In this document: positions 1 through 19,300 of the stretch, in pieces | How the letters are laid out: the number at the start of each line of letters is the position of its first letter | Numbering within the stretch: the first letter of the stretch is position 1 | Source: Candidatus Omnitrophica bacterium UBA6215 | Lineage (GTDB): Bacteria > Omnitrophota > Gorgyraeia > Pluralincolimonadales > Pluralincolimonadaceae | Reading direction: 5' to 3' | DNA: 64,000 nucleotides | Assembly: GCA_002421665.1 (NCBI GenBank) | Contig: DISH01000007.1 | Span: 209,278 to 273,277, forward strand | Program-made: the position numbers and the translations under genes | The notes under the pieces: generated by a model | The model's database searches: none | Told to the model about the DNA's origin: nothing | What the model saw: only the letters and a program-made list of their open reading frames with translations

Positions 1-741
1 CTCGCTGGCCTTAGCCGCCAAAGCATCCGCCACTTCCACCGGACAGCGCTTTGAGCCAATGCCGTGCAGATACATATTCATCGCGCACAACCGGGCCACG
101 GATTCTACGATATCCACGCCATACAAAGCCTCATTCACCATTAATTCCTTATCGCCTTTGGAGAGCGTAGGATTATTCTTTATCACATAATCAAAAGCAT
201 TCAGCAAAAACCCGCCGGTTCCGCAGGCAGGATCGCAAATCTTCATTCCCGGCTGGGGTTTCATTACTTCCACCATCGCCTTGATCAACGGCCGAGGAGT
301 AAAATACTGACCGGCGCCGCCTTTGGTATCCTGGGCATTCTTCTCCAACAATCCCTCATAAATCGTACCCTTGATATCAATATCCAGCCCCAGCCATTTC
401 TCGGCATCAATCATATTGATCAGTCGCTTCAGCTTAGCCGGGTCCTGGATTTTATTCTGGGACTTGCTGAAAATCCTGCCGATAATCCCGCGCTGTTTGC
501 TTAATTCCCGCAGCACCGTAATATAATGGCCTTCCAGCGGTTCGCCGTCCAGCTTCTTAAGCGACTTCCAACTATACTTGGCCGGGATCTCGCTGTCATG
601 CAACAACTCATCTCGCTCATCCGACATCTTCAGGAACAGCAAATACGTCAACTGCTCCACGTAATCGCCGTAACTTACGCCGTCATCCCGCAGCACATCG
701 CAGTAATTCCATACTTTTTGGACTATTTCATTTTCGCTCAT
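1..741 (-). CDS. hsdM: Type I R-M DNA methyltransferase subunit HsdM (N-terminal ~247 aa; gene runs off the window start)
   Basis: Minus-strand translation from the ATG at 739-741 reads MSENEIVQKVWNYCDVLRDDG...GQYFTPRPLIKAMVEV...ICDPACGTGGFL (HsdM N-domain plus SAM motif I). It is absent from the ORF track because it is open to the window edge. Confidence 0.85.
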   Translation of the reverse strand, partial: MSENEIVQKVWNYCDVLRDDGVSYGDYVEQLTYLLFLKMSDERDELLHDSEIPAKYSWKSLKKLDGEPLEGHYITVLRELSKQRGIIGRIFSKSQNKIQDPAKLKRLINMIDAEKWLGLDIDIKGTIYEGLLEKNAQDTKGGAGQYFTPRPLIKAMVEVMKPQPGMKICDPACGTGGFLLNAFDYVIKNNPTLSKGDKELMVNEALYGVDIVESVARLCAMNMYLHGIGSKRCPVEVADALAAKASE

Positions 742-760
742 AATTTATCCTCATAGAAGC

Positions 761-1774
761 TTAATCCTTCAATTGCGATAGAATAAAACATTTATTCTTA
801 AGAAAAGAAACAATCTTCTCATCTTTTTCGCCTCTAGTATAAATGTTTTTCCGAATTTCTTCATTGGGGCATACTCTATTCTCAAAATCGTAAATACTAC
901 TATTATCCGCTTCGTAGACGGTGGTATAAAATAGCTTATCTTGGATATTTTCTTGAAACACTTGATGCAAACCTAATCTTTCCATGTTAAGCGAATCAAA
1001 TCCAAATCCTAAAAAGAAAATATAGTCAGCTGCGGCTAAATATTGTTGAGCCTCTGTAAAAATAGCTTGCGTTCCATTAGAGGCATTAGGTCGAATGATC
1101 TCAACGTTTTTTGCAATCTCCCAAAACAAATGTGGCTTAGAAAAGTTAATAAGATTGTCTATTGCTCCATATGCTCTGCCGTCTTTTGTATATAAGTTAC
1201 CCACACTTCCATAAAAATGTAAGATTTTGATTTTATCTAGAAATTCCAAATACGTAGCTTGTTCTTTAGGGGTAGCAGAATGTATATAATTACGAACGTA
1301 ATAAGTTCTAGCAATATAATATTCTAGCGCAAGATCATAATTGAAAGTTATAAAACGAACTCTGCCGTTATGAAGTACTTTGTAATCATCATCTAAAAAA
1401 TTAAAAATGTGCCTATGCCAATTGTCATCAAAATTAAATACCAATCTTTGCCTATTACTTGCTTTTTCGGCAGATAAAATTGCATAGGTTATACCGGCAC
1501 GTCCTATTTTCTCAAAATCAATGGGTTGCTTTTCCTCTCTGGCTAAAACTCTTGCTAAAAAAGCATCGATACTATTTAATCCAGATTCTTCCAACCTATC
1601 AGAGAATATACCAATATCTCTACCCGAAATACCATATCCTTCCATAAATTTAATAAAGAGACTATCATGCTTATATCCAACGATTGTCTTTATTAATTCT
1701 GCACCTGTCGGATATCCAAAATCTTTGGATGCTCCTGCGCCTAAGACAAAAACAAACTTTTTATTATTCATCAT
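761..1774 (-). CDS. SIR2_2-family (sirtuin-like, predicted NAD+-consuming) protein, 337 aa
   Basis: Motifs FVFVLGAGAS, ITFNYDLALE, ILHFYGSVG and DYIFFLGFGFD match the SIR2_2 defence-type fold. Its start overlaps the stop of the upstream gene by 1 nt. It ends 19 bp before the hsdM start. Confidence 0.7.
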   Translation of the reverse strand: MMNNKKFVFVLGAGASKDFGYPTGAELIKTIVGYKHDSLFIKFMEGYGISGRDIGIFSDRLEESGLNSIDAFLARVLAREEKQPIDFEKIGRAGITYAILSAEKASNRQRLVFNFDDNWHRHIFNFLDDDYKVLHNGRVRFITFNYDLALEYYIARTYYVRNYIHSATPKEQATYLEFLDKIKILHFYGSVGNLYTKDGRAYGAIDNLINFSKPHLFWEIAKNVEIIRPNASNGTQAIFTEAQQYLAAADYIFFLGFGFDSLNMERLGLHQVFQENIQDKLFYTTVYEADNSSIYDFENRVCPNEEIRKNIYTRGEKDEKIVSFLKNKCFILSQLKD

Positions 1775-2616
1775 TAAATAGCCTCGTCCAAACGTCTTAA
1801 TAAATTACTAACAGCAAATAATCTCCCCAAAGCTTCTTGATGATCTATTTGTTTAATATCACCATGACTCAAAGAATTACGCCACCATTGCATAATCCCC
1901 ATAACGATATGCATAAATCCCTCTTGTTCGCATTGTTCAGTTTTATTGGATAAAGAATTCAATTTGATAAACGGGTGAGCTAAGTTAAAAACCTGCCCCA
2001 TCAAATCAATCCCCACAAGATTGCTTCCGCTTTTCTTCTGAACATAAGTTTCAAACTTCTCTAACGCCTTACGTACCGACTCATTAATATGCCCCTCCAG
2101 AAATAACTTCTGGCAATCCGGCATAAGTAGAGGATGTAAAGAAAACTTCTTTAGTATATCCTGAATCTCAAACGTCGGCGGGACAATGGTAGGCCTGGAT
2201 TTTGGCAAACTTAAGGCTAATATTTCTTTTCTAAGATCTATTCCTATCTTACATAGCTGCTTTGCGAATAATTCAGCCTCATCATACAGTATTGGATTGC
2301 CCTGTGAGTGTCTGCGCTCAATTGCTTGAGGCATTATTTCTCTAACAATAATCTTGATCGTCCTTGGTTTATCCTTATGTAGCTTGCGAATAAACTCAAC
2401 CAAAGCTTCTTTCTTTGAAGAACTCCCCTTAGATAGATACTTAGACAGTCCTCTTTTCTTGGCAATACTTACTATATTAAATCTGCTTTTATAGCCGGAA
2501 TAAGGCACAAGTTCGCCTAGCATTTCAGCCAATATACGGATATTCTGTATATCTACGGCTGAAAACCGTTTTACACACACCTTTTGTATTCTCTTCTTAT
2601 GTTTTCGCTTTTTCAT
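1774..2616 (-). CDS. HEPN-domain protein (Abi_C / TIGR02391-like C-terminus), 280 aa, basic N-terminus
   Basis: C-terminal block EGHINESVRKALEKFE...GIDLMGQVF...MQWWRNSLSHGD carries an Rx4H HEPN motif in an Abi_C-like context. N-terminus is Lys/Arg-rich (MKKRKHKKRIQK). Confidence 0.55.
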   Translation of the reverse strand: MKKRKHKKRIQKVCVKRFSAVDIQNIRILAEMLGELVPYSGYKSRFNIVSIAKKRGLSKYLSKGSSSKKEALVEFIRKLHKDKPRTIKIIVREIMPQAIERRHSQGNPILYDEAELFAKQLCKIGIDLRKEILALSLPKSRPTIVPPTFEIQDILKKFSLHPLLMPDCQKLFLEGHINESVRKALEKFETYVQKKSGSNLVGIDLMGQVFNLAHPFIKLNSLSNKTEQCEQEGFMHIVMGIMQWWRNSLSHGDIKQIDHQEALGRLFAVSNLLRRLDEAI

Positions 2617-2630
2617 TATTCCTTCAAACT

Positions 2631-3263
2631 CTATTCAATTTTCTTATCCAAAGAACGTAAAATTCTTGGACCTACATCTAATGCCCATAAAGCTGCATTA
2701 ACATCAACATCTTTTGCATGTACTGCACTATTGAGCAAACCGATTAGATCATCTAAGACACTTCTTTCCTCAATCGACAATAATTTATTATTTGCCAAGA
2801 CTACAAGTATCTGTTTTATCCCTCTCATAGGGATGTTTAACTGATGTTTTTCAGCAATATCGTTTAAACGTTTCTCAATTTCAATACGTAAGCCAGCCAA
2901 AGCGAGTTTAGGGTCTTCATTCGCGACTAACTGGAAAGAATATTTAGGAACTTTAGCGTTTGTAACAGTCTTACCAAGCAACCCTCCGGACTCTATCAAT
3001 CCTGCCTTCTCGGCTTCTCGAGTAACCTCCTGTAATTTTCGTAGCTCTACTTTCATCCCACCAGGGAATTCGATGGACTGAATTATCTCACGCAACCAAG
3101 GGATAAGAGCAATCACTATTAAAATTATAGTAATCGCATCCATTCTTAGATACCCCCAAAATGCATGCTCCACGGCCAAAATTAAAAAAATTACAGTTAC
3201 TAATATTTGTGCTCCTTTTTCTCTACAATAACTCCATATTGGAGATATCCAACGCTTGTTCAT
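2631..3263 (-). CDS. Hypothetical 2-TM membrane protein with cytoplasmic alpha-helical C-domain, 210 aa
   Basis: Two hydrophobic helices (ILVTVIFLILAVEHAFWGY / AITIILIVIALIPWL) precede a charged soluble domain. It overlaps the upstream gene by 4 nt (ATGA). No recognisable motif. Confidence 0.5.
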   Translation of the reverse strand: MNKRWISPIWSYCREKGAQILVTVIFLILAVEHAFWGYLRMDAITIILIVIALIPWLREIIQSIEFPGGMKVELRKLQEVTREAEKAGLIESGGLLGKTVTNAKVPKYSFQLVANEDPKLALAGLRIEIEKRLNDIAEKHQLNIPMRGIKQILVVLANNKLLSIEERSVLDDLIGLLNSAVHAKDVDVNAALWALDVGPRILRSLDKKIE

Positions 3264-4099
3264 AATACGTCACCCTCAATTATCTTAAACCCTCTTTTCT
3301 TGAGTTCCTCGGAAATTTCCTCCTTTAATTTAGGATTCTTTAACCGAGGGTCAATAATAACTCCATCCAAAAAATTCTGGAAATTATGCACAACTGGAAC
3401 GAGAGAAAACTCTTTCCCCATATCTAATTTACAGTTAGTTGCAATAAGTCTTATTTCATTCTCAAAATCAAAGCTACTTCTTTTTTCCAAATAACAACTG
3501 GCGATTGTTCTACTCTTGAAATAAGCCATCTGATCGGCCACGGTTCTTAAGAGGATGTCCATTCCATCATAATCAAAACTAGAATAATTAACTTCACCAG
3601 CCCAGAATGTTTCACTGTAATCTAGAACATCCTTACCGTTTTCTAAAGTTCGCATAATTTTATCAACGCTAGAAACCATCGCGACATTCCTATATTGTGG
3701 ATCTTTACCATACTCTTCCCACATTTTCTTTGATTGCTTCTTACTCCAACATTGGCAAAAAGTATCCTCAAAATACCTTTGCGTAACTATCAAGCCATCT
3801 GGCAGGATGACTTTTTTTCTTAAAATGATTGAATCTAATCGATCTCCGACAAGCCATTTCTTAGGATGACTAAAATATAAAACCTTGCCATCAACATTCG
3901 ATAAAAAATTATCTGATGTTTCTATTCTATAAACTGGGGAGAAACAATCTAGGGTTTCAGGAATAACATTCCTCGCATATGGTTTCCCATTGTATTCTTT
4001 TAGTTCCATGATTACTCTCTCAAGGCTATCCTTCAAGTGTTTTTCACCTTCTTTAGTGGACAAAAACTTACGCGCCTCATCAAAAATATCATTGTACAT
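3260..4099 (-). CDS. Hypothetical protein, 279 aa (no recognisable domain)
   Basis: Long AT-rich ORF, 17 bp downstream of hsdS on the same strand. It is translationally coupled to the 2-TM protein. Confidence 0.5.
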   Translation of the reverse strand: MYNDIFDEARKFLSTKEGEKHLKDSLERVIMELKEYNGKPYARNVIPETLDCFSPVYRIETSDNFLSNVDGKVLYFSHPKKWLVGDRLDSIILRKKVILPDGLIVTQRYFEDTFCQCWSKKQSKKMWEEYGKDPQYRNVAMVSSVDKIMRTLENGKDVLDYSETFWAGEVNYSSFDYDGMDILLRTVADQMAYFKSRTIASCYLEKRSSFDFENEIRLIATNCKLDMGKEFSLVPVVHNFQNFLDGVIIDPRLKNPKLKEEISEELKKRGFKIIEGDVL

Positions 4100-4116
4100 T
4101 TTTCAACCATTCCGCA

Positions 4117-5358
4117 TCAAAATTTAGCCTTTTCTTTCTTTATTCGCTCAAGCAAAACTTCTACCGGTTCATCAGCGGGATCAGGCTCAACCAGATTGCC
4201 TTCAAAAGCTTTCTTTAGAATACTCTGCTTTAGCTGCTCAATTTTATCCAAACCCTGAACCACTGCATCTTCAAGTATTTTTGCCCTCTCAAAATAGTCT
4301 TCTATAGCTTTCACTATTTGTAATTGTTCTTGAGAAGAACATAATGGGAACAAATACTGCAATAAATCATCCTTCCTTATTCCCTTAACAGTCGTTCCTG
4401 AAGTCTTAAACTTAACAGTACCGTAATAATAATAGAAGTAGTCAATATTAATTCTTTCTTTTAGAAAAAAGGCTCTTAAATCCTGGTTAATTGCCACAGC
4501 GATCTTATTAATTTGAATCTTCCCTACACTGATTCTAGTGCAAACAATTATGTTACCTGCAGGGATAAGATTAGTTGAACTACTTTCGACTGCTTTTTTT
4601 GTAATTCTATCAATGGTTGACTCTAAATATTTTCCTTCACTATTCATGTCTTTGACACTAGCCCAAGGGATATTTCCATTCCAATATTCCATATGATTCT
4701 TAGAAGGAGTCCCCCCACCTAAGTCTTTTGCTATTACATCAGCCAAAGTAACTCTACTAAAACTAATCCCAGGGGTTAATCTTCCTTCAAACGCCGATTT
4801 GAGCACTGACTGGCGATAGCGCTTGATTTCCTGCCGCACGCGCAGCAGCGAATCCTTGGCACTATCCAACCGCGAAAACAAACTTTCAATCTTGGCGACA
4901 ATGCGTTTTTGCTCAGAAAGAGAATATATCTCGATTGCAAGATCTTCGAGCTCCTTGGAAGGCACACGGAGCTGTCCTGCTGTCCCTGTCATCTTACTTC
5001 GTAAATATTTCCGAACCTTCTTTTGAATTAAGTAATAAAAACAGTACTTCGGATCGATAGCTTTGGCTAATCTTATAACGTGAAACTCAGTTGAACCGAA
5101 ACCAACACCATTTATCAAACCATTAACTAAAGCCAATTTACCATTTTCCATACAGGGAGTAATCTTCGCAAAAAGAATATCCCCATCCCTAAAAGAAGTA
5201 AACCTGCGTTTCCCTTCTTCGCTCTTAATTTTAGCAGATAAATCAACCATTCCCGTTTCAGCTTCTAGCGCCCTCATTGGTAGAAAACTGGCTATAAAAT
5301 TATTCTTAAGTTTATCTCTGGGATTAATAATTGCTATTTCTTTTATTTTTATTATCAT
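4117..5358 (-). CDS. hsdS: Type I R-M specificity subunit HsdS, 413 aa
   Basis: Central conserved block LSEQKRIVAKIESLFSRLDSA...LKSAFEGRLTP and C-terminal LKKAFEGNLV sit between two variable target-recognition regions. The conserved blocks are visibly GC-richer than the TRDs. Confidence 0.85.
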   Translation of the reverse strand: MIIKIKEIAIINPRDKLKNNFIASFLPMRALEAETGMVDLSAKIKSEEGKRRFTSFRDGDILFAKITPCMENGKLALVNGLINGVGFGSTEFHVIRLAKAIDPKYCFYYLIQKKVRKYLRSKMTGTAGQLRVPSKELEDLAIEIYSLSEQKRIVAKIESLFSRLDSAKDSLLRVRQEIKRYRQSVLKSAFEGRLTPGISFSRVTLADVIAKDLGGGTPSKNHMEYWNGNIPWASVKDMNSEGKYLESTIDRITKKAVESSSTNLIPAGNIIVCTRISVGKIQINKIAVAINQDLRAFFLKERINIDYFYYYYGTVKFKTSGTTVKGIRKDDLLQYLFPLCSSQEQLQIVKAIEDYFERAKILEDAVVQGLDKIEQLKQSILKKAFEGNLVEPDPADEPVEVLLERIKKEKAKF

Positions 5359-5564
5359 TCTATTTCTCTAACTGAGCTCCTGCCAATAGTTAACAAAACA
5401 AGGTTACATACGCAATATTTCTATCTCCAAAAATAAAAAAAGCCCCCAAGAATAACCCTTGCTCTCCTGAGAGATTCGAAAGCAATAAGCCTGCTCGATC
5501 TCTTCAAAAGCCTTCTTCTCTTTCTTCAATGAGATTTATTCTGCTTAAATGCGTATTATACATA

Positions 5565-6668
5565 CTATTCCCCTATTATTAAGACCTCGTACAACCCATG
5601 TCCATTTCGATGATTAAGCTTATACTTATACTTTTTTCTGAAGATGCGAACCTTTGGCTTGTACTTCAACATAAGTTTCTTAATCTTATAGATAGACGGA
5701 TATCCAGGCTGCCCATATGACAGAACTATTATTGAGTCCTTAAACTTATTGAATAAAGCGTCAAGATTATCCTCTATTTTTCCTTCATTCCAATGATTCT
5801 TTTGCTTAACCAGTCTCTTATTCTTTGTTTTTAAATCTATATTCTTGGGCCAATTGTCATAATCGACTATTCCGTCAAGGAAATGATATAGTTCGCGATA
5901 ATCTTTTGGCATTTTTTCGTCTGCTCTGGCATATGGAGGGTCAAAATAAACAAGATCAAATTTTCTGTTCTCTATGTCCAAAATATCCTGGGAAATGGCT
6001 TTATGCGTGGAACCATTTGAGAATACTTTGCTTGAAACTTCTTCATTAAAACGCTTCATCAACTTAGTAAAACAAGTATTCCATGTTATCTTATTGCCAA
6101 AACTACGCTCAATATTTTTAGCAGTTCTAAGCGAAAGATTTTTTCTATGAAAGAGGTTGAAAGGTCTTTTGCATAAACAGGACTGAAATAGTAAATGATA
6201 AGCCAAAGCCTGTTTCTTGGCCAAAACATCACCTTTATATCTTTCTGAGAGCATCTTTATGTTTAGTGCCATCACATCTAATAATCTGTTCTCCTCAGAA
6301 GTATAGTACACTCCTTTAAATGTATCCTCAATATAACTTGGATATTTGAAACCGTTTCGGTGAAATACAAATTCCAGATCGGCTTCATCTAAAGTAATTG
6401 AGTCATTCTCAATTAAAGCTACTCCCGTCATGCGATTAGACGGAAGAATATCGTTAAACGTCACTTTCTTATTCATCAATTTGAATAAATAACTAACACT
6501 GCCTGTGCCACCAAACCCATCGAGAACAGTTTTAAACTGCAGAGATTTTAGATTATCATGTATCCACGGCAATATGCTTCTCTTGCTACCTTGATACCTA
6601 GTAGTAGGAACTCTATGCAGGATATCCACTGGTCCTGCGATTATCTTTTCTTCCAGTTTTTTAATCAC
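5565..6668 (-). CDS. Dam-family (alpha-class, D12) N6-adenine DNA methyltransferase, 367 aa
   Basis: N-terminal FxGxG (DGFGGTGSVS) followed later by DPPY (LVYFDPPYA), which is the alpha-class motif order. It overlaps the upstream ORF by 4 nt. Confidence 0.7.
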   Translation of the reverse strand: MIKKLEEKIIAGPVDILHRVPTTRYQGSKRSILPWIHDNLKSLQFKTVLDGFGGTGSVSYLFKLMNKKVTFNDILPSNRMTGVALIENDSITLDEADLEFVFHRNGFKYPSYIEDTFKGVYYTSEENRLLDVMALNIKMLSERYKGDVLAKKQALAYHLLFQSCLCKRPFNLFHRKNLSLRTAKNIERSFGNKITWNTCFTKLMKRFNEEVSSKVFSNGSTHKAISQDILDIENRKFDLVYFDPPYARADEKMPKDYRELYHFLDGIVDYDNWPKNIDLKTKNKRLVKQKNHWNEGKIEDNLDALFNKFKDSIIVLSYGQPGYPSIYKIKKLMLKYKPKVRIFRKKYKYKLNHRNGHGLYEVLIIGE

Positions 6669-7429
6669 ACTCTTCCCCTGATTATCAAACCCAAAGATTG
6701 TTTTAATGCTCTTTTATATGTTGCATCCCCTATCACTTTAAGGACTTTTCTTTGGTTCACTACGCCTAGTGATTTAAAATCCTCGGATAATCCCAGTGCG
6801 AGTACAGTATTAACATATTTTTGGACATCTTTAAACCTACTGAGCCATTTGCCAAATTCTGCTTTTTTGTATGCTGGCGCTACGCCTTGAATTGTAGTCT
6901 GAAAAGAAGAAAAATTGCTGTGTACATATTTTGATAGCGTTGTATACATAGCACGTACTTTATCAAAAAGCTCTCCTCCTGCCTTACCTTTAAAGTTATT
7001 AACATCATCCAGATGCATAAAATAATCATAATTATCTCCCCAAACATGCTTTCCTTTAAAAAAAGCCTTATCATCTTTCCACCACTTCAGCTCTATAGGA
7101 TGCGATGAAAAATATACCAACCTCAAGACGGTTTCCAACTCCGCCCTTAAAGAAACGTGGGCTTGCTTATACAATGACATGCATGCAAAATAAATGGACA
7201 TGTAAGAATCCATAAACGTTTCTTTAATTAAATCTCTGGCTGAGGTGCCATACTTGCGTTCTAGAGTGTTTCTCCAAGTATCAAAGATGCTAACCATTAC
7301 TAATAGTTTTTCTATTTCGCGATGATTAGCCTTGAGAGTATCTTCCCAATTATTTTTACTCAAACGTTGCTGGCTGTCATACATAATCTTTGTTAACTTA
7401 GGCAACCTCTCGGCTTTGAATGTCTTCAT
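6665..7429 (-). CDS. Hypothetical protein, 254 aa (possible nuclease/effector partner of the MTase-ATPase cassette)
   Basis: ORF tightly packed between the 242-aa gene (2-bp gap) and the MTase (4-nt overlap). No recognisable motif. Confidence 0.45.
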   Translation of the reverse strand: MKTFKAERLPKLTKIMYDSQQRLSKNNWEDTLKANHREIEKLLVMVSIFDTWRNTLERKYGTSARDLIKETFMDSYMSIYFACMSLYKQAHVSLRAELETVLRLVYFSSHPIELKWWKDDKAFFKGKHVWGDNYDYFMHLDDVNNFKGKAGGELFDKVRAMYTTLSKYVHSNFSSFQTTIQGVAPAYKKAEFGKWLSRFKDVQKYVNTVLALGLSEDFKSLGVVNQRKVLKVIGDATYKRALKQSLGLIIRGRV

Positions 7430-7431
7430 TT

Positions 7432-8160
7432 TTACCTCACAAGAATAACAGCTAGTGAATAAAGCTGTTGTTGTGTATTGATATCTTTGCTTAAACTTGA
7501 GATTTTAAATATATTATACTTGTATTTTTGGCATAACAATTCGGCGACCTTCTTAATCAAATCCATTTTCTGCGTATTACTAGAAATTGTTGGAGGGAAA
7601 GCATCCAGGGCCAACCCTCCCCACCCACTAGATTGCATAGCATCAGAAACCCTTTTAACATTATCTCGAGAGATGTCTTCGGAATTAACAACTGTAGTTT
7701 GTAATAATACGAATCCTTTACTGCGTTTCTGCCCTTGTAAAACAATAAAACTCTCAACTTTCTCCAATTCCTTTTCAATCCTGGAGTTATTAACATATAT
7801 ATCTTGGGAAGAAAAATCAAGGTTCAGAATATCACATGGGAAAAGGGGATTAAGTTGACAGGTAGCCGTCGAGATAAGTTCATCGCATATAGAGCCATTC
7901 AAAACTACCCCTAACGCCTCCGTCTCTGCCCTAACAGCTTTGATCATATTGCTGACCCATAAAACACAATCTCCTCTTTGCACCAAATTATTATCTTCTA
8001 ATCGAGATATCTCTTTAAAATTAATTCCATCAGTCAAAGTAAAAAGCTTCATCTGTTTATTCTTTCTACGACTATTATAAAATCTGGCGCCTCCTTCTCT
8101 TGCCATAGGAAGCCAGAGTTCTTCTATCAATTGGTCTCTTAGGGTATCAATTTCTGCCAT
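7432..8160 (-). CDS. Hypothetical protein, 242 aa
   Basis: ORF 4 bp downstream of the GHKL ATPase gene. No recognisable motif. Confidence 0.45.
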   Translation of the reverse strand: MAEIDTLRDQLIEELWLPMAREGGARFYNSRRKNKQMKLFTLTDGINFKEISRLEDNNLVQRGDCVLWVSNMIKAVRAETEALGVVLNGSICDELISTATCQLNPLFPCDILNLDFSSQDIYVNNSRIEKELEKVESFIVLQGQKRSKGFVLLQTTVVNSEDISRDNVKRVSDAMQSSGWGGLALDAFPPTISSNTQKMDLIKKVAELLCQKYKYNIFKISSLSKDINTQQQLYSLAVILVR

Positions 8161-8164
8161 GTCA

Positions 8165-9838
8165 TTACCCTTTGAATACAGTCTCTATCAGATGATTCAA
8201 TTCACTTAGTAATTTTTCTTCGTCTTTCCTATCCTTAGCAATTAAGAGGAACCCCAAAGCGATCTTCTTGATAACGTCTTCGCTGATTTTGCTTTTGAAA
8301 AGTGGGTGTGAGGAATTAAAGGCCACCTTCTTCCCGGAACTATCCAGCTTACAGATAGAATAATGGCTTTTCTTGTAATCCCAGTCATCATAAGTCACAG
8401 AGAATTTCTTGTCGTCTATCTCAATACTCTCGACAAACTCAGGGTGATTGTCATAAATGACAATCGATTTTTCTTTTGGCTTAACTTCGACCGGCTGCTG
8501 TTTATCTTTGGGCTCTTCTTTTCTTGATATAATCTTAAACTGAGTTTTATCTGTTAATGCTTTCTTGATTGTCTCTAGGGTAGAGGTGATCCTTTCTCTG
8601 GATTTTTTTACCATCGGCTCTTTAGAAAGCCTTAATCTTTCTTTCGAGAAATGGAGTATATTTGCTTTTTTAAGCTCCTCAATTAATGGCTCAGAGTCTT
8701 TTAATGGCATTAAGGCTTGATAAATGTCCTTGTCTTGTACAGCCCATTTTTCTTGTACATCGCTCCACTTAGTGAGTTTTTTCCGGAAGAAATCCTGCAT
8801 CTCAGAAACTTCCTGCGTATAAGAAAAGCTGTCTCTGTCAATCATCAAGAAAGAATCCAGTCCGTCCAAGACACAAACTTCTCCGGAAATATAATTTAAT
8901 TTACCTGGCACTTTACCAGTAAGCTTGGAGACCTCAAAATCTGTCGGAAGGCCAACTGCAACATCCCTCAATCTTACCTGCAGCCCTCTCGCCTCTTCAG
9001 GCTCGACTGGCTTTTTCGCAGTGGTAATAACGTATTTTAGATGCACATTTCCGAATTTTTCTTCGCCCTTATCAAGAATCTCTATATTTTCGGGAACATT
9101 TCTGAAAAGTTCTTTTCCGTCGAGCCATAACCTCATTGGTACTCTTTCTGCATCGGCAAAGAAACTCCGCAATATTCTCTGTTCAGGTGAAAACTGTATT
9201 GGAGAATACTGACTTATTGTCCATTTGAATTTCTCAAAACCGCTAAATTTATCTATACTAGACCATCCAGAACCACTCTTTTGACGTAGCTCCTTGATGA
9301 GGTGTTGCTTTATGCCTTTTAACGATATGATAGTCTCTCCATCTTTCTTGGCTAAATCGCTCTTATGAACAGTGCATTTCGCCTTTTCTTTTTCGATATC
9401 AGAAGGAGTGCCGGTAAAGAAACGCTGTGTCTCAATCGTCAACTCAATAAGATCATCACTATCCATTTTTTTAGTAATCACATGGACTGTATTACAATAA
9501 GGAAAGACCGAAAGGCAACCGATACCAAAAGTGCCGATTCGTTTTCTTCCCAGCTCATCCAACTTGTCGGAAGGCTGTGTAACATAGCCTATCGTAAGAA
9601 ACTTTTTCTCAATATCCTCTAGGCTCATACCGCGACCATTATCTCTGACTATTATTTCTCCCCTATCAAGATCCAACTTTATTTTTACTTCAGTTGCGCC
9701 GGCATCATAAGAGTTTGATATAAGCTCTTTGATTGCTCGTGCAAAGTTACGATATAATCCCAAACTCAAATGACTTACTACTTCTTTGTTAACCTTAAAG
9801 GGTAATTCTACCTGTTTAGTTTGATTATCTATTTTCAT
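8165..9838 (-). CDS. GHKL-superfamily ATPase (HATPase_c_3, MORC/Hsp90/MutL-like Bergerat fold), ~557 aa
   Basis: N-box ELISNSYDAGA, G1 box RDNGRGMS and G2 box GTFGIGCLS. An AGGAGG sits 7 nt before the ATG at 9838 (the ORF track begins 2 codons earlier at a TTG). It begins 38 bp after the hsdR stop. Confidence 0.7.
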   Translation of the reverse strand: MKIDNQTKQVELPFKVNKEVVSHLSLGLYRNFARAIKELISNSYDAGATEVKIKLDLDRGEIIVRDNGRGMSLEDIEKKFLTIGYVTQPSDKLDELGRKRIGTFGIGCLSVFPYCNTVHVITKKMDSDDLIELTIETQRFFTGTPSDIEKEKAKCTVHKSDLAKKDGETIISLKGIKQHLIKELRQKSGSGWSSIDKFSGFEKFKWTISQYSPIQFSPEQRILRSFFADAERVPMRLWLDGKELFRNVPENIEILDKGEEKFGNVHLKYVITTAKKPVEPEEARGLQVRLRDVAVGLPTDFEVSKLTGKVPGKLNYISGEVCVLDGLDSFLMIDRDSFSYTQEVSEMQDFFRKKLTKWSDVQEKWAVQDKDIYQALMPLKDSEPLIEELKKANILHFSKERLRLSKEPMVKKSRERITSTLETIKKALTDKTQFKIISRKEEPKDKQQPVEVKPKEKSIVIYDNHPEFVESIEIDDKKFSVTYDDWDYKKSHYSICKLDSSGKKVAFNSSHPLFKSKISEDVIKKIALGFLLIAKDRKDEEKLLSELNHLIETVFKG

Positions 9839-9881
9839 GGTCAAACCTCCTATTCAATTTACTCTTCGGAAGAAAAATAAT

Positions 9882-12557
9882 CTATACCAACACACTATTC
9901 AACTCCTCCATAACATCATCCAGCCTATCCCCAAAAACTTCTTTCGCCTTAATAATCCCGCCGCTGCCGCTAAAGGGCGGCAGGAGGAAGTCTTTTTTAT
10001 CCACACTGCCGGAGCCGGCGATGTGCTCGGCAATCATAGTCAACCACTGAATCTGCCGGCCGGTGAAAGTTTTACCCAAAAACTGTTGATCTTTCAACCA
10101 TTCTTGGAAACGATGTTCCACATGCTCTTTAAACGGCTCCAGGACTTCTTCTTTGCGGACGGCAAAACGCACCAAAGAGATAATGTCGGTTAATTGGGTT
10201 TGCACGGAGAAGCCGCGCACTTTGGATTTTTCCAGTTGTTCGTATGCCTGCCAGAGGGCATCGGTGGTAAAGCCGTAAGGCGGCATTTCGATTTTTTCGG
10301 CTAAGTCGCGGATCTCTTCATAGGTAATATGGCGTTTTTTGTAGGGCAGGTTATAGATGATCTGCAGGGCAGTGATCTTATCTTTATTTTCTGCGACGAA
10401 CTGCTCGAACTTCTTGACCAGGGATAAAGCTTTTTCTTTGGCCTGTTGGTCAAAGCCGGATCTGATGATTTTATCTACGGTAGTAGTGTCAATGGTCTGT
10501 TCGGCCTTGGTTTGTAACGCCGTAAGCAGTTGGCGAAAATCCGGATTATCAAAGGGCGCGCAGGCTTGGTCCCGGTCAGGAGCGGTATCCGGATCGATAA
10601 CGGACATAAGATCGTTGGTAATGTCGGTTAAGGACTTGCCGCCGGATGCTTCTTTAATCCGCTGAATGTCTCTCTCCTCTAATTCCAGGTTCAGGCGCGC
10701 TAAACGCGAAGCCAGGCTGGAAAGTGTATCATTATCCCGGATGCCGATGGCTACGTTGTTGAGTAATTTAGGCGTAGGAACGCTTTTCTGGCGGTCAAGG
10801 GTAGTGGTCTGGCTCTTCTCGCTTTCGCAGACGCCAACGGCATCCACGATCACAAAATGAGTTTTGGCTCTGGCGTCGGAGGTTACCGCGTGCAAATCAT
10901 CCGGATCAATCACCCGGGTGCCGCGGCCTTTCATCTGCTCGAAATAGACCGCGGATTTGACGTCACGCATAAATAAGATACATTCCAGGGGCTTGATGTC
11001 GGTGCCGGTTGAGATCATATCCACGGTTACGGCAATCCGGGGATTGAAGCTATTGCGAAAGGCGGCGATCAGGTCATCGGTGTTTTCTTGGGTGCGGTAG
11101 GTTATTTTCTTGCAGAAATCATTGCCTTTACCGAATTCTTCGCGCACGATACCGGTGATGTCCTCGGCATGGCTATCGTCTTTGGCGAAAATCAGGGTTT
11201 TCGGGACTTCACTGCGTCCGGGAAAGATTTCCGTAAAGAGTTTATCCTTAAACTCGCGGGTAACCGTGCGGATCTGATCTTTAACCACAATACTACGGTC
11301 AAGCTGATCCGGAGTGTAATCTAAATCCTCGTCCAGCTTTTCCCAGCGAAGTTTGCGAGTAAGTTTGTCGCGTTTGTCCACGTAAAAACCGGAAAGGATC
11401 TTGCCCCCTTTTTCCGTAGTCTCGGTGCGAATGCGGTAAACATCAAAACCGACGTTGACCTTATCCGCCACTGCCCGATTGTGGTCGTATTCCATCACCA
11501 GGTTCTTGTTAAAGAAACCGATGGTCTGATTAGACGGGGTGGCAGTAAGGCCGATGATAAAGGAATCAAAGTATTCCAGGACCTGGCGCCAGAGATTGTA
11601 AATGGAGCGGTGGCATTCGTCCACGATGATGAAGTCAAAGGTTTCAATGGGGATCTTGCCCCGGAATTTGATCGCCTGGGGGTCGATGTCAAGCGCAGAT
11701 GATTCATAAAGGGACTTCTCTTCCAAACTGGCGTCCAGTTCCTGGTCGCCTTTAAGCATGGAGAAAAGGCGCTGGATGGTGGTAATGCAAACCTTGGCGT
11801 CCTGGTCAAAGACGTTGGTGGCCATATGCTGGACAATATAGAGATCGGTGAAACAGCGGTTGTCGTCAAAAGGGATATAGCTCTGGAATTCTTTTTTGAC
11901 CTGCCGGCCCAGAGAACAGCGATCAACCAAGAAGAGAATACGGCGGGCCTTGGCGAATTTGATCAGGCGGTAGATTTCGCTGATGGCGGTGTAGGTTTTG
12001 CCACTGCCGGTAGCCATTTGCAGAAGCGCGCGCGGACGGCTGTCATGTAAAGATACTTCCAGATTCTTGACCGCCTCGATCTGGCACTGGCGCAGGTTAT
12101 AGGGATCTAATGGCGGTAATTCGCGCAGGCGCCGGCGCAGGGTTTGCGGATCCTGGACCCATTCGGCTAAAGTTGCCGGGCTGTGAAAAGCAAAAACCCG
12201 GCGGGAACAAGGATCCGGATCACGCTGACTGCGAAAAAAGGTCTCAATACCGGTAGATTCGTAGGCAAACGGCAGAACATCGTCAATATGCGGCAGGTTT
12301 TCAGGGATTGAGGCATTGTAGCGGGCGGTTTGTTCAGCCACGCCGGAAAGCGTGGTGCCTTCGGTTTTGGCTTCCACGGTGCCGACGGCTTTACGATCCA
12401 CAAAAAGCAAATAATCGGCCGGGCCGGATTTAGTGGGAAACTCCCGGACAGCTACTCCCCTGCCGGCGGAAAGATTAATCTTACGGACATCCTGGATAAT
12501 CCATCCGGCTTCTTTTAATAAATCATCGATAACTTTACGTGCCTCTGCTTCGCTCAT
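9882..12557 (-). CDS. hsdR: Type I restriction enzyme R subunit HsdR, 891 aa
   Basis: N-terminus MSEAEARKVIDDLLKEAGW...PADYLLF matches the HsdR_N nuclease domain. Downstream are SF2 helicase motifs (GSGKT, DECHRS). GC is host-like. Confidence 0.85.
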   Translation of the reverse strand: MSEAEARKVIDDLLKEAGWIIQDVRKINLSAGRGVAVREFPTKSGPADYLLFVDRKAVGTVEAKTEGTTLSGVAEQTARYNASIPENLPHIDDVLPFAYESTGIETFFRSQRDPDPCSRRVFAFHSPATLAEWVQDPQTLRRRLRELPPLDPYNLRQCQIEAVKNLEVSLHDSRPRALLQMATGSGKTYTAISEIYRLIKFAKARRILFLVDRCSLGRQVKKEFQSYIPFDDNRCFTDLYIVQHMATNVFDQDAKVCITTIQRLFSMLKGDQELDASLEEKSLYESSALDIDPQAIKFRGKIPIETFDFIIVDECHRSIYNLWRQVLEYFDSFIIGLTATPSNQTIGFFNKNLVMEYDHNRAVADKVNVGFDVYRIRTETTEKGGKILSGFYVDKRDKLTRKLRWEKLDEDLDYTPDQLDRSIVVKDQIRTVTREFKDKLFTEIFPGRSEVPKTLIFAKDDSHAEDITGIVREEFGKGNDFCKKITYRTQENTDDLIAAFRNSFNPRIAVTVDMISTGTDIKPLECILFMRDVKSAVYFEQMKGRGTRVIDPDDLHAVTSDARAKTHFVIVDAVGVCESEKSQTTTLDRQKSVPTPKLLNNVAIGIRDNDTLSSLASRLARLNLELEERDIQRIKEASGGKSLTDITNDLMSVIDPDTAPDRDQACAPFDNPDFRQLLTALQTKAEQTIDTTTVDKIIRSGFDQQAKEKALSLVKKFEQFVAENKDKITALQIIYNLPYKKRHITYEEIRDLAEKIEMPPYGFTTDALWQAYEQLEKSKVRGFSVQTQLTDIISLVRFAVRKEEVLEPFKEHVEHRFQEWLKDQQFLGKTFTGRQIQWLTMIAEHIAGSGSVDKKDFLLPPFSGSGGIIKAKEVFGDRLDDVMEELNSVLV

Positions 12558-12568
12558 ACAACCTCTAT

Positions 12569-13258
12569 TCAGTTATCTGAAAAACTATAGTAATCAGCCC
12601 CGCCTACGATTATATGGTCGAGAACCTCGATTCCCAGTAAATCTGCGGCGGCGGATAAGTCTTCGGTAAATTTCTTGTCTTGAGCGCTCGGTGCAGCGTT
12701 GCCGCTTGGGTGGTTGTGAACGCAAACGATAGATTTGGCGAATTTTTGCAATGCGGCGTGAATTATTTCGCGAACAATAGGAAATGCCTTATCGACCGTG
12801 CCGACGGCCGTATCCGAAATATCGATTATGCGGTTGTTGTTGTCGAGATACACCACCTTGAAAACTTCAGTCTTAAGATCGCGGAGTTGGGGCATTATTA
12901 TATCTACGACATCTTTGGCGGAGGCGACCTTTTGTTTGCCGGTGGACACATCGTCCTGACGATAGCGCCGCCCGATTTCAAGCGCGGCTTGAATATGGGC
13001 AATCTTGGCCCCGCCTAAACCTTTGAATTCTTTCCAATCTCTTGTATCTGTGTGAGCCATGCTCCGAAACGAGCCGAATTTCTTGAGGATAGCTCGGGCG
13101 AGGTCTATCGCGCTGGTCCCCTTTGTGCCTGTGCGAAGAAGAATTGCCAGAAGCTCCGAATCGCTCAAAGCCCCCGCCCCCTTCTTGAGCAGCTTCTCGC
13201 GCGGCCTGTCGTCTATGGGCCAGCTTTTGATACCGGTTATTCGATTCGTTTTTTTCAT
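12569..13258 (-). CDS. radC: RadC-family JAB/MPN domain protein, 229 aa
   Basis: HNHPSGNAAPSAQD JAMM motif plus an N-terminal HhH region. It ends 11 bp before hsdR. Confidence 0.8.
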   Translation of the reverse strand: MKKTNRITGIKSWPIDDRPREKLLKKGAGALSDSELLAILLRTGTKGTSAIDLARAILKKFGSFRSMAHTDTRDWKEFKGLGGAKIAHIQAALEIGRRYRQDDVSTGKQKVASAKDVVDIIMPQLRDLKTEVFKVVYLDNNNRIIDISDTAVGTVDKAFPIVREIIHAALQKFAKSIVCVHNHPSGNAAPSAQDKKFTEDLSAAADLLGIEVLDHIIVGGADYYSFSDN

Positions 13259-13266
13259 ATTTATTG

Positions 13267-14706
13267 CTAGAAGAACAAGAGAAATATCGACAATGGAATG
13301 AACAGCAGCTTCTTTTCGTCTTGCGTCTTAACGAAATCTTTTGTCACAACAATTCCAAATTTCTGATCAAAAGCGTTAACAAAATACTTGATTGACGCCA
13401 GATCGTCCATCGCATCTCTATATTTGACTTCGACCGGCAGATACCGCTTGCCGCCTACATGAACTACAAAATCGACCTCGCGTTTCGCGTCCTTATAGTA
13501 AGACAGCTCTATTGCTCCCTCGAATTGCCGCAAGGCGTTAAATACGAGATTTTCGGCATAAAATCCCATGGCTGAGGGGTCGCTTAAAACGCTTTCGTTC
13601 AGTTTCAAGATAGCGTTTCGCAGCGCTAAATCAAGAAGATAGCATTTCACGCTACCCCGCCTGAACTTAAGCGGCCTTTTTGAGAATCGAGGTAGCGTTT
13701 TTACGAGATCTGTCATTTCCAAAAGCGGCAAATATTTTTCAAGCATCGGCCTGCTGACGCCAACCTTCTGAGAGGCCTTTTCTATATTAATCTCTTGTCC
13801 GGGCTGTTCGATAAGCGACAAATAGTAACTCTTTATTTTCTCCGGCTTCCGGAACTCCGTAGCTATAATCAAATCCTCGAAAATCACCTTTTGTACCTGA
13901 TTATCGAAAAGGTATTCCTGCTTGGCAACAATATCTTCTATTTCCCAGGACTCCGGGAATCCTCCTTCGATAAAATATCTATTCAACTGAATGTTTAATT
14001 CGCGAAAGACGTTCCCCGGAACGTTCAATGGACCGGATTCCGATTGAAATTCCTTCCAATCAACGGCCATTTCTCTTTGAAGTTTATATCCGAAAGCCTG
14101 AGCGCGTTTTACGAAATCAAGGACCTCGCTATCGCCCGCTTTATGAAAATAAACGAATTCCTTGAAAGAAAACGGCAATATATGATTATCTTTTATCCTT
14201 CCTAATAGACTCTCTCGGCTTTTACGGAATATCGGCGATGAGGCGGAACCGGATATGACAAATCTTACAGGAAACCCGAGGTCATAGTATTTCTTCAGAT
14301 ACAGCTCCCAGCGGTCAAAACGCTGAACTTCATCCAGAAAAAAATAAACCGTTTCGCTTTTACGCGTAATATCGGCCCACTTTATCATCTCATCGAAGAA
14401 ATGTTCGCGCATCTGTGGTTCCGACAAAAGTGGATCATCGAAAGAAAAATAGACAATTTGATTGGGCTTGGCATGACCGTCATTAATCAGTGATTGGATA
14501 ATTTGTTTAAGGAGGGTTGTCTTTCCGACTCGACGCGGTCCTGTAATCGAAATGATTTGTTTCAGTGATAAGAGGTCTTTGTAGATTTTATGAAAGACGG
14601 GTCTTTTAAAAACCTCGGTTTTAACTACGCCTTCTTTCCACCAATGGTTATATGGAGTTAATATCGCCTCTATCTGAACGCCGTCAAATTCGCCTCTTCT
14701 CACCAA
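13267..14706 (-). CDS. AAA+ ATPase with DUF4143 C-terminal domain (AAA_14 family), 479 aa
   Basis: Walker A ITGPRRVGKTTLL and Walker B FFLDEVQ. Overall architecture is typical of the DUF4143 ATPase family. Confidence 0.7.
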   Translation of the reverse strand: MVRRGEFDGVQIEAILTPYNHWWKEGVVKTEVFKRPVFHKIYKDLLSLKQIISITGPRRVGKTTLLKQIIQSLINDGHAKPNQIVYFSFDDPLLSEPQMREHFFDEMIKWADITRKSETVYFFLDEVQRFDRWELYLKKYYDLGFPVRFVISGSASSPIFRKSRESLLGRIKDNHILPFSFKEFVYFHKAGDSEVLDFVKRAQAFGYKLQREMAVDWKEFQSESGPLNVPGNVFRELNIQLNRYFIEGGFPESWEIEDIVAKQEYLFDNQVQKVIFEDLIIATEFRKPEKIKSYYLSLIEQPGQEINIEKASQKVGVSRPMLEKYLPLLEMTDLVKTLPRFSKRPLKFRRGSVKCYLLDLALRNAILKLNESVLSDPSAMGFYAENLVFNALRQFEGAIELSYYKDAKREVDFVVHVGGKRYLPVEVKYRDAMDDLASIKYFVNAFDQKFGIVVTKDFVKTQDEKKLLFIPLSIFLLFF

Positions 14707-16001: not shown

Positions 16002-16388
16002 TTATTTGTTAAACTGCTTCCTTACGTCAGGTAAAATAAGGAAGATAACCAAAATAACCGTAGATATTATCAAAGTCACGATAAACTCTTTTTCGCTGTC
16101 CGAACTGCGAAATAGCGTAACAAATATAGCGATTATAATAGCTGTTGCCCAAGAAAACGCTAAATGCAATATCCATGCTATACGATACCGCATCAGAGTC
16201 AAAATGCCCCTGACCAGAAACAGAATGGCAAAAAGGACTAATTCACCTCCTTTTACGTTTGAATCTACGCTTGGGCCTAAAAAACTTAAGAATAATACAA
16301 AAGGAAATACGAGTAAATCAAAAATACCGAACATCTGTGTTGCAGGCAGGTCGTTTTCTTTCGTGTTCTCCATTTTTACCCCCAGCAA
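16002..16388 (-). CDS. Small membrane protein, 128 aa, paralogous to the C-terminus of the preceding protein
   Basis: Shared block ILT(L/V)xR(Y/L)R(I/L)AW(I/F)LH(L/V)xFSW(A/V)T. Confidence 0.5.
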   Translation of the reverse strand: MLGVKMENTKENDLPATQMFGIFDLLVFPFVLFLSFLGPSVDSNVKGGELVLFAILFLVRGILTLMRYRIAWILHLAFSWATAIIIAIFVTLFRSSDSEKEFIVTLIISTVILVIFLILPDVRKQFNK

Positions 16389-19300
16389 ATATCATAAAAA
16401 TCACACCTAGCACCCCCGGCGCCGCACCTGCCGGGCTTGTCGTCTTTCTCCGGGAGTTTCGCGAAATCGAGTTTCTTTATGCGGGCACGGACGTCCTTGA
16501 TGAGCGCGGCAAGCTCGGCAACCATATCATCGGTCAATTCCACCCTCTTCTTGACGAACCCACCCGCCTCAAGGTCGTGTTTGGCGACAGACTCCTTGGC
16601 CGGGTCGAGAAAGACGAGCACCCCCTCCTTCACCTTGCGGCCCTGCGATTCTTTCTTGTCGTTGTCGAAGAGCAGTTTATAGGAGATGAGCTGGCGCAGG
16701 TAGTCCTCAAAGTCGCCGCTCGATACCGGGATCTCCTTTGAGATGGAATTGTTGATGCCCTTGACGTGCTTGTCCGGCTCGCCGGTCTTATAGTCGACCA
16801 CGCGCACACAGCCTTCGGCGAGGCAACCGGTACCGATCGCCTCGGTCTTGTCGTACTTACCGGTAAATTTCAGGTCGTCGCCGAGCATCACGACAAGCCG
16901 CCTCTCGAGGCCGAGCGGCTTGACCGGCAGGCGCGACTCTTCCTTGAACCAGGCCTTGAAAGTCTCCGCCTGGCGCAGGCACGCGGTCTTTATCGCCTCT
17001 TCCGGGGCCTCGTGGGCCAATTCCCGGATAAAGGCATCCTTGAAGAACGCAAAATCCGGGAACTTGCCTTCTTTCATGAACTTGCCGTAGGTATCTTCAA
17101 GCGCCTTGTGCGTGCAGTTACCGAAGACGAGCGACTGCTTCTTCGGCGACGGCAGCATGAGGACATCGTCGTATAAATACTTGCGCGGGCAGTTGATGTA
17201 ATTGTTGAGCGCCGTCGGGTTAAGCGACAGGTCCGCGACGAGGTCGGCGAGGACCTTGTCCGTGCCGATGAACGGGTCTTGGGCGTCGGTGGAGTCGAGC
17301 GCCGCTTTAAGGAGCTCCTCTTCTTTCGCCTTCGACTCCCTGGCATCTACGCCTGCCAGGTACGAGCTTGGGACAGCGCTCTCCGTGGGGCTCGCCGTAT
17401 AGATAAGGTTCGCCTTGGCGCGCGTCGAGGCAACGTAAAAAAGGCGCGTCTCATCGTAATAATCGAGCTGCTTTAATATCTCCTTGTCGGTCGGGATCTC
17501 TTTCGATTTGTATACCTCCGGCGGAAGCGGGATAGTGACCCCCTGCGGGCGTTTCGGCCAGCGCTTCTTTTCAAGGCAGAACGGGATGAAGACCGTGTGG
17601 AACTCGAGGCCCTTCGAGCCGTGCGCCGTGTAGATGCGCACACCTTCCTGTGCGGCCGTGACAAGCTCGCCCTGCAGCGGCATGCCGTGGGCCTTGCGCG
17701 TCTCGAGCTCGTCAATGAATTCCTTCAGCGTGATGCCCGGACGTGCTACGTCGGATTCCTTCACCATGTTGACGAACGACGTCAGCGCGCGCAGGTCGCG
17801 GATACGCAGGAGGTCGTTGTCGTCGTATTTATCGAGGATGAACTTCATCACCCCGGCATCCTTGATATACTGCATAAGGATCGCGTGCACCGGCCTCGTC
17901 TCCGCCTCGAACAGCAGGTTCTTAATAGGGGACGTGTCAAAAAGGGACACTCCGCTGCCCGCCATATATTCCGAGAACATCGAGACCGTCGGGGCCTCGC
18001 CTTTCTTGCGCTGGTCGTATTTCTTCGCGCGCACCGAGGCGATGAATCGCAGGACGTCGTTCATCGGGATGCGCATGTAATCGGCGGTGAGGATCCGGTA
18101 AAGGTAAGCGTCCTTCTGCTCCACCTCGATATCCGGCGTGTGCGCGAAATAAAGGACATCGAGCATCTGGCGGACGCGCTTCTCGCCGGAGATGTCTTCC
18201 TTGCCGTCGGTGGCATAGGGAATGCCCGCGCGCAGGAACGCGTCGACCACGCGCAGGATATCGTCGCGCTGGCGCACAAGGACGGCCATGTCGTCGAACG
18301 CCACGCCCTCTTTCTTCAAGATCTCTTTTATGCGCCGGGCAATGAAGAGCATCTCTTCGGTCTCGGTCGTAAATTCATCGTACTCGATAGTCTTCTTCTT
18401 GAAATCTCTTTCGGGGGCGAGGGCTTTGACTTCGTAGCGCTCTTTTTTGGGCAAGTTATTGATTATGCGGTCGGAAAGCGAGATTATCTCTTTGGTCGAG
18501 CGGTAATTCTTCTCCAGGGCGATAACCTTCAGGCCGGGAAACCTCTTCTTGAGTTCCTTAAAATTAGCGACGGAAGCGCCTTGGAACCTGAAGATAGACT
18601 GGTCGTCGTCGCCGACACAGCAAATGTTCGGGGAGCCTATTTCAAACAGCAGGTCGAGCTGGGCGCCGTTGGTGTCCTGGAACTCGTCGACCATTATATA
18701 GGTATATTGTGAGCGCAGCGCGAGCGCAAGCTCATGCTCGCTGCGGATCGCCTCGATGGCGAAGAGGATCATGTCATCGTAATCGTAGCGGCCACGGTCG
18801 TCAAACAGGTCCTTGTTCTTCCCGGCCTTGTATTCCTCGTAAAGTTTATAGACGACGGCGAGGGCCTTGAGCCGCTCGATGTGCTTCTCTTCGATGTAGG
18901 CGCCGTCGGGTCCGGCCTTTTCCACGATCCCGGCGAATTGAGCCGGCGATATACCCTCGCGCTTTAGCTCGGTTATCCTCTGGCTGATCTCTCTCTCGAA
19001 AGCATAAGGCGCGCGGAACGGACGGATCTTATCAATGCCCTCGGTGTTATCCAAAATATATTCGAGAAGTTTTATCCGCTCGATGTCAGTTATCTGGACG
19101 CGTTCCTGTATGTATTCGGCGGCCTCCTCAGACTCGAGCACGATGGAATTCGCGAAACTGTGGAATGTCGCGGTTTCAATATTATATGCGGCCGCTCCTA
19201 GTATCCTGACCAGGCGCTCTTTCATAGCCTTGGCGGCGGCATTCGTGTACGTCAGGATGAGGATATTCTCGGGCTTTGCCTTCTTCGCCCTGATAATGTT

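Follow-up and report, generated by a model that had tools for sequence, protein, structure and literature searches.

The 64,000-nucleotide stretch of DNA analysed here (Candidatus Omnitrophica bacterium UBA6215, contig DISH01000007.1, positions 209,278 to 273,277; hereafter the window, with positions counted from its first letter) carries on its minus strand a gene for a 280-amino-acid HEPN protein (1774..2616), followed directly by a gene for a 337-amino-acid SIR2-like protein (761..1774). Both start with ATG and both lie between hsdS and hsdM of a type I restriction-modification (R-M) operon. Our comparison with related loci leads us to think that the two genes are probably independent defence cassettes, standing side by side and co-transcribed with the type I R-M genes in a recombination-prone slot between hsdS and hsdM. 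A first-pass annotation of the sequence had read them as a two-gene abortive-infection module, made of a HEPN sensor or ribonuclease (RNase) and a SIR2 effector that depletes nicotinamide adenine dinucleotide (NAD+). That interpretation is as a whole partly supported. Both open reading frames (ORFs) are present with the motifs quoted for them (QWWRNSLSHGD in the first; GAGAS, FNYD and HFYGS in the second), which are far above chance expectation, and their stated position, after the cargo on the hsdS side and before hsdM, is also correct (hsdS at 4117..5358 upstream, hsdM ATG at 741). The proposed pairing, for which conservation of the two genes as neighbours had been named beforehand as a test, fails it.

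The overlap between the stop of the HEPN gene and the start of the SIR2 gene is real, with one base in common (GCT ATT TAATGATG). It is not special in this operon, because all junctions between hsdS and hsdM are equally tight (-4 to +19 nucleotides, all genes co-directional), and taken alone it does not argue for a two-gene system. Read along the minus strand, the genes come in the order hsdR; genes for a GHKL/BbrUII-like protein, a 242-residue protein, a 254-residue protein and a D12 methyltransferase; hsdS; DUF2971, TM_210, HEPN and SIR2; and hsdM, the cargo slot being bordered by hsdS upstream and hsdM downstream. A scan for promoters and terminators gave nothing above shuffled background, with no convincing terminator between hsdS and hsdM, and the HEPN and SIR2 genes are co-transcribed with the type I R-M operon. 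The G+C content is 33-42% over positions 750-9900 versus about 50% in the flanks; the slot is part of a horizontally acquired, low-GC insert inside this operon.

Neighbours of the two genes in related loci

The search for HEPN relatives returned 84 metagenome loci, 80 of which were kept; pooled with the remaining HEPN loci and grouped at 97% identity, they give 58 lineages (related loci compared with the window are labelled by L-numbers such as L001 or L088). A SIR2 gene adjoins the HEPN gene in only two of these, the window lineage and L088, and the other 56 have something else downstream. The closest HEPN relatives (L096, 90% identical; L199, 88%; L097, 85%; L091, L098 and L126, 72%) sit in the same type of R-M locus, with HsdM proteins 91-95% identical, and there a gene for a 193-residue AbiGi-like protein occupies the SIR2 slot; the resemblance of this replacement to AbiGi is weak. 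Across the family the slot downstream of HEPN is highly variable and holds ABC/OLD-type ATPases, pP_pnuc_1 nucleases, HerA-NurA, AAA_13, DUF3644/EC042_2821, CHAT, AbiGi-like or SIR2 proteins. Relatives of some of these families act in other defence systems.

Seen from the SIR2 gene, the association is equally loose. No Ymh-domain ORF, the type of HEPN found in the window, was present at any of 101 other SIR2-family loci (80 from GTDB representative genomes, 16 viral contigs and five others). The window copy groups with that of L198 (82% identical), where the upstream gene, overlapping with SIR2, encodes a 183-residue PD-Lambda-3_A-like protein, and not with the HEPN-linked copy of L088, which is only 62-63% identical and follows its HEPN gene at a gap of +2 nucleotides; the relatedness of the SIR2 proteins thus conflicts with their linkage to HEPN. 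The gene upstream of SIR2 is again a different one in L005 (61% identical; an unrelated 257-residue protein), L179 (60%; an MBL-fold protein) and L176 (57%; a SLFN-type helicase, PDC-S41). The 257-residue neighbour in L005 was considered as a diverged HEPN and rejected by BLASTP and Pfam. In L198 the PD-Lambda-3_A match (L198:651-1202, E=1.3e-12) is preceded by a fragment of a Lit-like U49 peptidase (L198:2-622). The 80 GTDB loci, whose SIR2 proteins are about 30% identical to that of the window, have no recurrent neighbour: roughly one flanking gene in three is oriented the other way, those on the same strand lie a median of about 90 nucleotides off, and the neighbours of such distant relatives are mostly housekeeping genes (aminotransferases, chorismate-binding enzymes, a tRNA synthetase).

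DNA homology between the window and L096 or L097 stops at the HEPN stop (1772/1787) and returns at about 754-757, just past the SIR2 stop; homology with L198 covers the SIR2 ORF and the start of hsdM only (window 1765..683). Because homology breaks at the borders of HEPN and SIR2, the genes have been exchanged singly, at gene borders.

A separate observation concerns hsdM, the first 45-65 nucleotides or so of which, beginning at the exact ATG, are duplicated as "stubs" beside the cargo in several loci, with the intact hsdM further downstream. Such stubs follow SIR2 in L088 (6872-6921) and L198 (2222-2280), follow the AbiGi-like gene in L096 (7420-7480 and 8108-8176), L097 (3388-3432) and L199 (7467-7503), and precede TM_210-HEPN in L100 (982-1043); in the window they correspond to the true start of hsdM (741..~675, minus strand). 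The sequence pattern suggests repeated capture of cassettes by recombination at the hsdM 5' end, somewhat in the manner of an integron. Judged from these duplications, the cargo would build up by recombination at that place, and since capture would occur there, a new cassette would adjoin the last gene before hsdM, which is often HEPN.

Several observations nevertheless weigh against two independent cassettes. The pair does recur once, in L088, in exactly the same position with a SIR2 that has diverged considerably. All six of the close HEPN lineages have exactly one gene, SIR2 or AbiGi-like, between HEPN and hsdM or an hsdM stub, and a co-directional gene lies within 40 nucleotides downstream in about 32 of 51 HEPN lineages, so that HEPN may have an exchangeable partner. 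In its close clade the sensor-less SIR2 is usually found just downstream of a co-directional gene, which fits a dependent effector. Finally, members of the HEPN family are also found apart from R-M genes, for instance with large serine recombinases in eight lineages; the PrrC-like coupling to R-M that we discuss below is therefore not obligatory.

Among the alternatives, a genuine two-gene abortive-infection system, in which one of the proteins senses infection or regulates the other and both RNA and NAD+ are degraded, survives best, and we consider it unlikely. The stop/start overlap in the window and the 2-nucleotide gap in L088 speak for it, as do the occurrence of diverged SIR2 alleles at the same position in two lineages and the nature of the SIR2 protein, a bare catalytic domain without a sensor. 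The HEPN C-terminus is moreover PD-Lambda-3_B-like and the SIR2 most similar to that of the window is partnered by a PD-Lambda-3_A-like protein, which makes a triangle of the A-like protein of L198, the B-like HEPN of the window and SIR2. The B match is, however, limited to the generic Ymh domain (residues 159-279, E=1.4e-10 with PADLOC PD-Lambda-3_B), and the tight junction is shared by every gene of the operon. Also against such a system are the low frequency of the pair, found in two of 58 HEPN lineages and two of about 103 SIR2 loci, the discordance between SIR2 identity and HEPN linkage, and recombination breakpoints that fall exactly between both genes.

It seems improbable to us that the HEPN protein is instead a hub or adaptor, possibly tethered to R-M, that licenses whichever effector lies downstream (SIR2, AbiGi-like, ATPase-nucleases or HerA-NurA), or that the functional unit is the larger block DUF2971-TM_210-HEPN followed by a variable gene. 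The single variable gene in six of six close lineages and the short distances in about 32 of 51 would suit a hub, as would the conserved and family-specific N-terminal domain of the HEPN protein. The larger block finds its support in the joint occurrence of the 279-residue DUF2971 protein, TM_210 and HEPN in the window, L088, L096 and L199 (TM_210 and HEPN alone in L100), with TM_210 upstream of HEPN at a gap of 14-15 nucleotides in all five and with DUF2971 and TM_210 proteins in L088 that are 90% and 86% identical to those of the window. L091 and L097, on the other hand, have neither DUF2971 nor TM_210. A hub is further opposed by the 11 of 51 lineages in which the downstream gene lies on the opposite strand, and by the absence of any fusion of the HEPN N-domain to another effector among its relatives. 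Downstream families such as the OLD-like ATPase-TOPRIM proteins, HerA-NurA and DUF3644/EC042_2821 (as in HEC-08; bioRxiv 10.1101/2024.01.29.577857) have components of other defence systems among their members, which also speaks against a hub. There is likewise little chance, in our opinion, that the Ymh-HEPN is an R-M-associated hub arming interchangeable plug-in effectors from the gene directly downstream, within an integron-like, co-transcribed defence array of the type I R-M system whose cargo is captured by repeated recombination at the first 50-65 nucleotides or so of hsdM.

TM_210 (210 residues, 2631..3263, minus strand) belongs to no Pfam, NCBIfam or PADLOC family. Read by eye, its sequence has two N-terminal hydrophobic, possibly membrane-spanning segments and a helical C-terminal part with the motif LLNSAVH. 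A partnership with the HEPN protein is conceivable.

The HEPN and SIR2 proteins

Taken as two separate cassettes, the genes encode proteins whose folds and conserved residues can be described one after the other. The HEPN protein begins with a basic tail and an all-helical domain (residues 1 to about 155) and ends in a Ymh domain (residues 160-278) with the helical HEPN fold. PF09509 (Hypoth_Ymh) matches residues 160-276 with E=3.8e-25 and 88.5 bits versus a cut-off of 25, and TIGR02391 matches with E=2.5e-18 and 66.3 bits versus 39.45. The first-pass annotation had called the domain Abi_C-type or TIGR02391-like: the TIGR02391/Ymh-type assignment holds, and the profile search gave no match of Abi_C to the protein. 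The motif QWWRNSLSHGD spans residues 243-253 and contains the Rx4H signature R246-N-S-L-S-H251, with the polar N247 directly after the arginine; R246, N247 and H251 are invariant across 39 full-length homologues (33-92% identity).

The N-terminal part is specific to this family. Its 155 residues or so match no family and no ATPase in Pfam, PADLOC or NCBIfam, and have no P-loop. When 1.84 billion representatives were searched exhaustively with phmmer, just 38 relatives of this domain emerged; this result supersedes a word-indexed protein search that had given two matches only. All are at most 300 residues long, with the same architecture or as shorter fragments, barring two weak matches in proteins of about 1,500 residues. 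No member of the HEPN family was found in IMG/VR viral contigs, and a literature search under the name TIGR02391 found nothing.

The 337-residue protein is a genuine but divergent SIR2 without a sensor, as follows from its fold match, the conservation of its residues and its single compact domain. It had been called SIR2_2 in the first-pass annotation; the fold, the GAGxS loop and the N, D and H residues bear this out, and the profile does not, since Pfam gave no match at E<=0.1 and the gathering score of SIR2_2 (PF13289) was not reached. PADLOC SIR2 models match weakly (3e-5). Of the 474 homologues found at E<=1e-3 a few just reach PF13289, for which this family is borderline (one homologue, P0033, scores 25.4 versus 24.5, others below). 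GAGAS, FNYD and HFYGS lie at residues 12-16, 144-147 and 186-190, and in 46 aligned sequences G12, A13, G14, S16, N145, Y146, D147, H186, G189 and G256-F-G258 do not vary. When PDB sequences were searched by profile, KomC alone matched, and weakly (E=0.024); fold searches were therefore used. The AlphaFold2 (AF2) model is one compact domain (pLDDT 88.9, pTM 0.90) with the Rossmann-type fold of SIR2. Its comparison scores descend from 8w9l (16.3) and the SIR2 of Nezha/SIR2-HerA (15.1) through KomC (13.3) and ThsA (13.1) to classical sirtuins (12-10), FAM118B (11.0) and Avs5 (10.3). Foldseek agrees with this result, and the nearest folds are defence SIR2s. It is worth adding that the invariant histidine sits in an H-x-Y-G motif (186-189), two residues before the position aligned with the catalytic histidine of KomC (H146), the usual motif being H-G; H186 is on this evidence a putative catalytic residue.

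This mini-SIR2 family is mobile and occurs well beyond R-M loci. A scan of GTDB representative genomes gave at least 403 tblastn-confirmed matches, and 16 IMG/VR viral or prophage contigs (L182-L197) carry a member. A relative lies on plasmid At of Agrobacterium fabrum C58 (L200, 33565-34740), with genes for a restriction endonuclease and Fic nearby; L200 and the IMG/VR members are distant, at 23-34% identity. That one or both genes have no role in defence, for example because the SIR2 protein deacylates or ADP-ribosylates a cellular target or because the HEPN protein is an RNA-binding regulator without catalytic activity, is very improbable: distant SIR2 relatives do sit singly among housekeeping genes, but both window genes, and those closely related to them, invariably keep company with R-M, TIR, Fic, Lit-like, SLFN-helicase, Mrr and toxin-antitoxin genes, no variation is seen in the catalytic residues of either protein, and the defence-type SIR2 fold and the viral contigs point the same way.

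Association with type I restriction-modification and likeness to known systems

The HEPN family is most often partnered with type I R-M. Among the genes upstream of the 58 HEPN lineages (up to three each, 102 proteins) are 15 Methylase_S, nine HsdM_N/N6_Mtase and six HsdR-type helicases; 19 of the 32 HEPN loci of at least 6 kb contain type I R-M genes, and the order hsdR-hsdM-hsdS-HEPN is kept down to about 30% identity. This link was already predicted in 2013, when Anantharaman et al. listed Ymh as "in operon with R-M" and proposed a PrrC-like multi-pronged defence (PMC3710099). It is also established that type I R-M systems often have defence genes embedded in them (bioRxiv 10.1101/2024.01.29.577857; PMC11411939).

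Because type I R-M is its most frequent genomic partner, the logic of PrrC in EcoprrI, an RNase that backs up a restriction system, is the most plausible one for the HEPN protein. We would picture it as a metal-independent endoRNase that uses R246 and H251, is restrained by the family-specific N-terminal domain, and fires as a second-line response of the abortive-infection type. The SIR2 protein would be a minimal enzyme, lacking a sensor domain and predicted to act as an NADase that hydrolyses NAD+ through N145, D147 and H186; it is likely to be set off by assembling with itself, like other SIR2s of defence systems. By analogy, the locus would work like known R-M-embedded abortive-infection modules.

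Like PrrC, a relative of RloC, the predicted HEPN RNase of the window carries an Rx4-6H motif and is encoded within a type I R-M operon; the same second-line role behind R-M was proposed for R-M-linked HEPNs including Ymh (PMC3710099). The window protein differs in having a small helical N-domain and no ABC-ATPase, and it belongs to the Ymh family, which is also found outside R-M loci, and not to the PrrC family. PD-lambda-3 (Vassallo et al. 2022), a validated two-gene system that acts by abortive infection (PMC13190303), shares the C-terminal domain through its B protein. No A-like (PD-(D/E)xK) partner is present among the ten proteins of the island, and the proteins are unlike in their N-terminal halves; L198 is the one locus with an A-like protein, there beside another SIR2. 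The text of Vassallo 2022 gives no domain details for PD-lambda-3.

Set beside the SIR2 proteins of SIR2-HerA/Nezha, ThsA, DSR1/DSR2, KomC (Kongming), Avs5 and the pAgo-associated systems, that of the window is a single domain of 337 residues, without SLOG, STAND or APAZ and without a large sensor region at the C-terminus; it scores under the Pfam SIR2_2 threshold and has H-x-Y-G instead of H-G. Searches with Pfam and PADLOC found no HerA, ThsB/TIR, pAgo or KomA/B partner in the island. Membership of the named systems was rejected because in each case a defining partner or domain is missing: DUF87/HerA for SIR2-HerA (Nezha); SLOG on the SIR2 protein and a TIR in the island for Thoeris; the large C-terminal sensor region of proteins of about 1000 residues for DSR1/DSR2; all of PD-lambda-3 except the B-like C-terminal domain; an ABC-type ATPase fused to HEPN for PrrC/RloC, the embedding in type I R-M being present; and likewise a defining partner or domain for SPARSA. 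A further comparison is with defence genes embedded in type I R-M, BREX or Hma operons ("guilt by embedding", with the PDC and HEC candidates, and TgvAB in Vibrio cholerae). As in those loci, the type I R-M operon of the window is intact apart from the interrupting cargo, the DUF2971 protein of which matches the candidate PDC-S31; unlike those candidates, neither the 280-residue HEPN nor the mini-SIR2 family matches PADLOC v2 models beyond the domain level.

The interrupted operon and its significance

The remaining genes of the operon lie on the same minus strand. The first of them is hsdR (9882..12557), which encodes an EcoEI/EcoAI-type R subunit (EcoEI_R_C, E=4.7e-43; ResIII, E=8e-38; NF008521, E=2e-118). 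Between it and hsdS a second embedded block (5565..9844) encodes the GHKL-ATPase protein, the 242- and 254-residue proteins, which are without a family, and the D12-class N6-adenine methyltransferase. The GHKL-ATPase protein, of 559 residues, resembles restriction enzymes of the BbrUII/HgiDII family (NF050001, E=9e-30), and the block may be a separate ATP-dependent R-M-like system. The specificity subunit gene hsdS is well recognised (PF01420, E=8e-28; PADLOC Specificity_I, E=3.7e-92) and is followed by the gene for the 279-residue DUF2971 protein (3260..4099), which matches PF11185 with E=2e-4 and PDC-S31, a candidate single-gene defence family of PADLOC, with E=2e-26. The 5' part of hsdM (1..741, identified by translation) continues past the window start; L001, a contig identical to the window, shows the full 484-residue HsdM (HsdM_N, N6_Mtase) and then Mrr.

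It should be mentioned that hsdS lies inside the low-GC insert, whereas hsdR and hsdM have a flank-like GC content of about 50%. Compared with L088, L091 and L097, its DNA is conserved mainly in two places, a short central segment (4784-4923, 86-94% identity) and the 3' end (window ~4110-4330, 74-79%), the remainder being largely unalignable as DNA, a pattern that would fit exchange of target-recognition domains. A repeat scan of window positions 1-13000 gave chance-level repeats only, and megablast of positions 1-12600 found no match in E. coli genomes. Directly upstream of hsdR stand a RadC-like JAB protein and an AAA_14/DUF4143 ATPase (12569-14706, minus strand), and a fusion of UvrD helicase and PD-(D/E)xK lies at 16376-19411; a neighbourhood of defence or repair genes may thus extend further beyond hsdR.

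By itself the locus opens no long-standing question. It is a clean natural example of gene-by-gene swapping of cargo. If its products are active, it would add two candidate families to the defence genes known from within type I R-M operons, namely a Ymh-HEPN of about 280 residues with an N-domain that only 38 representative clusters possess, and a widespread sensor-less mini-SIR2.

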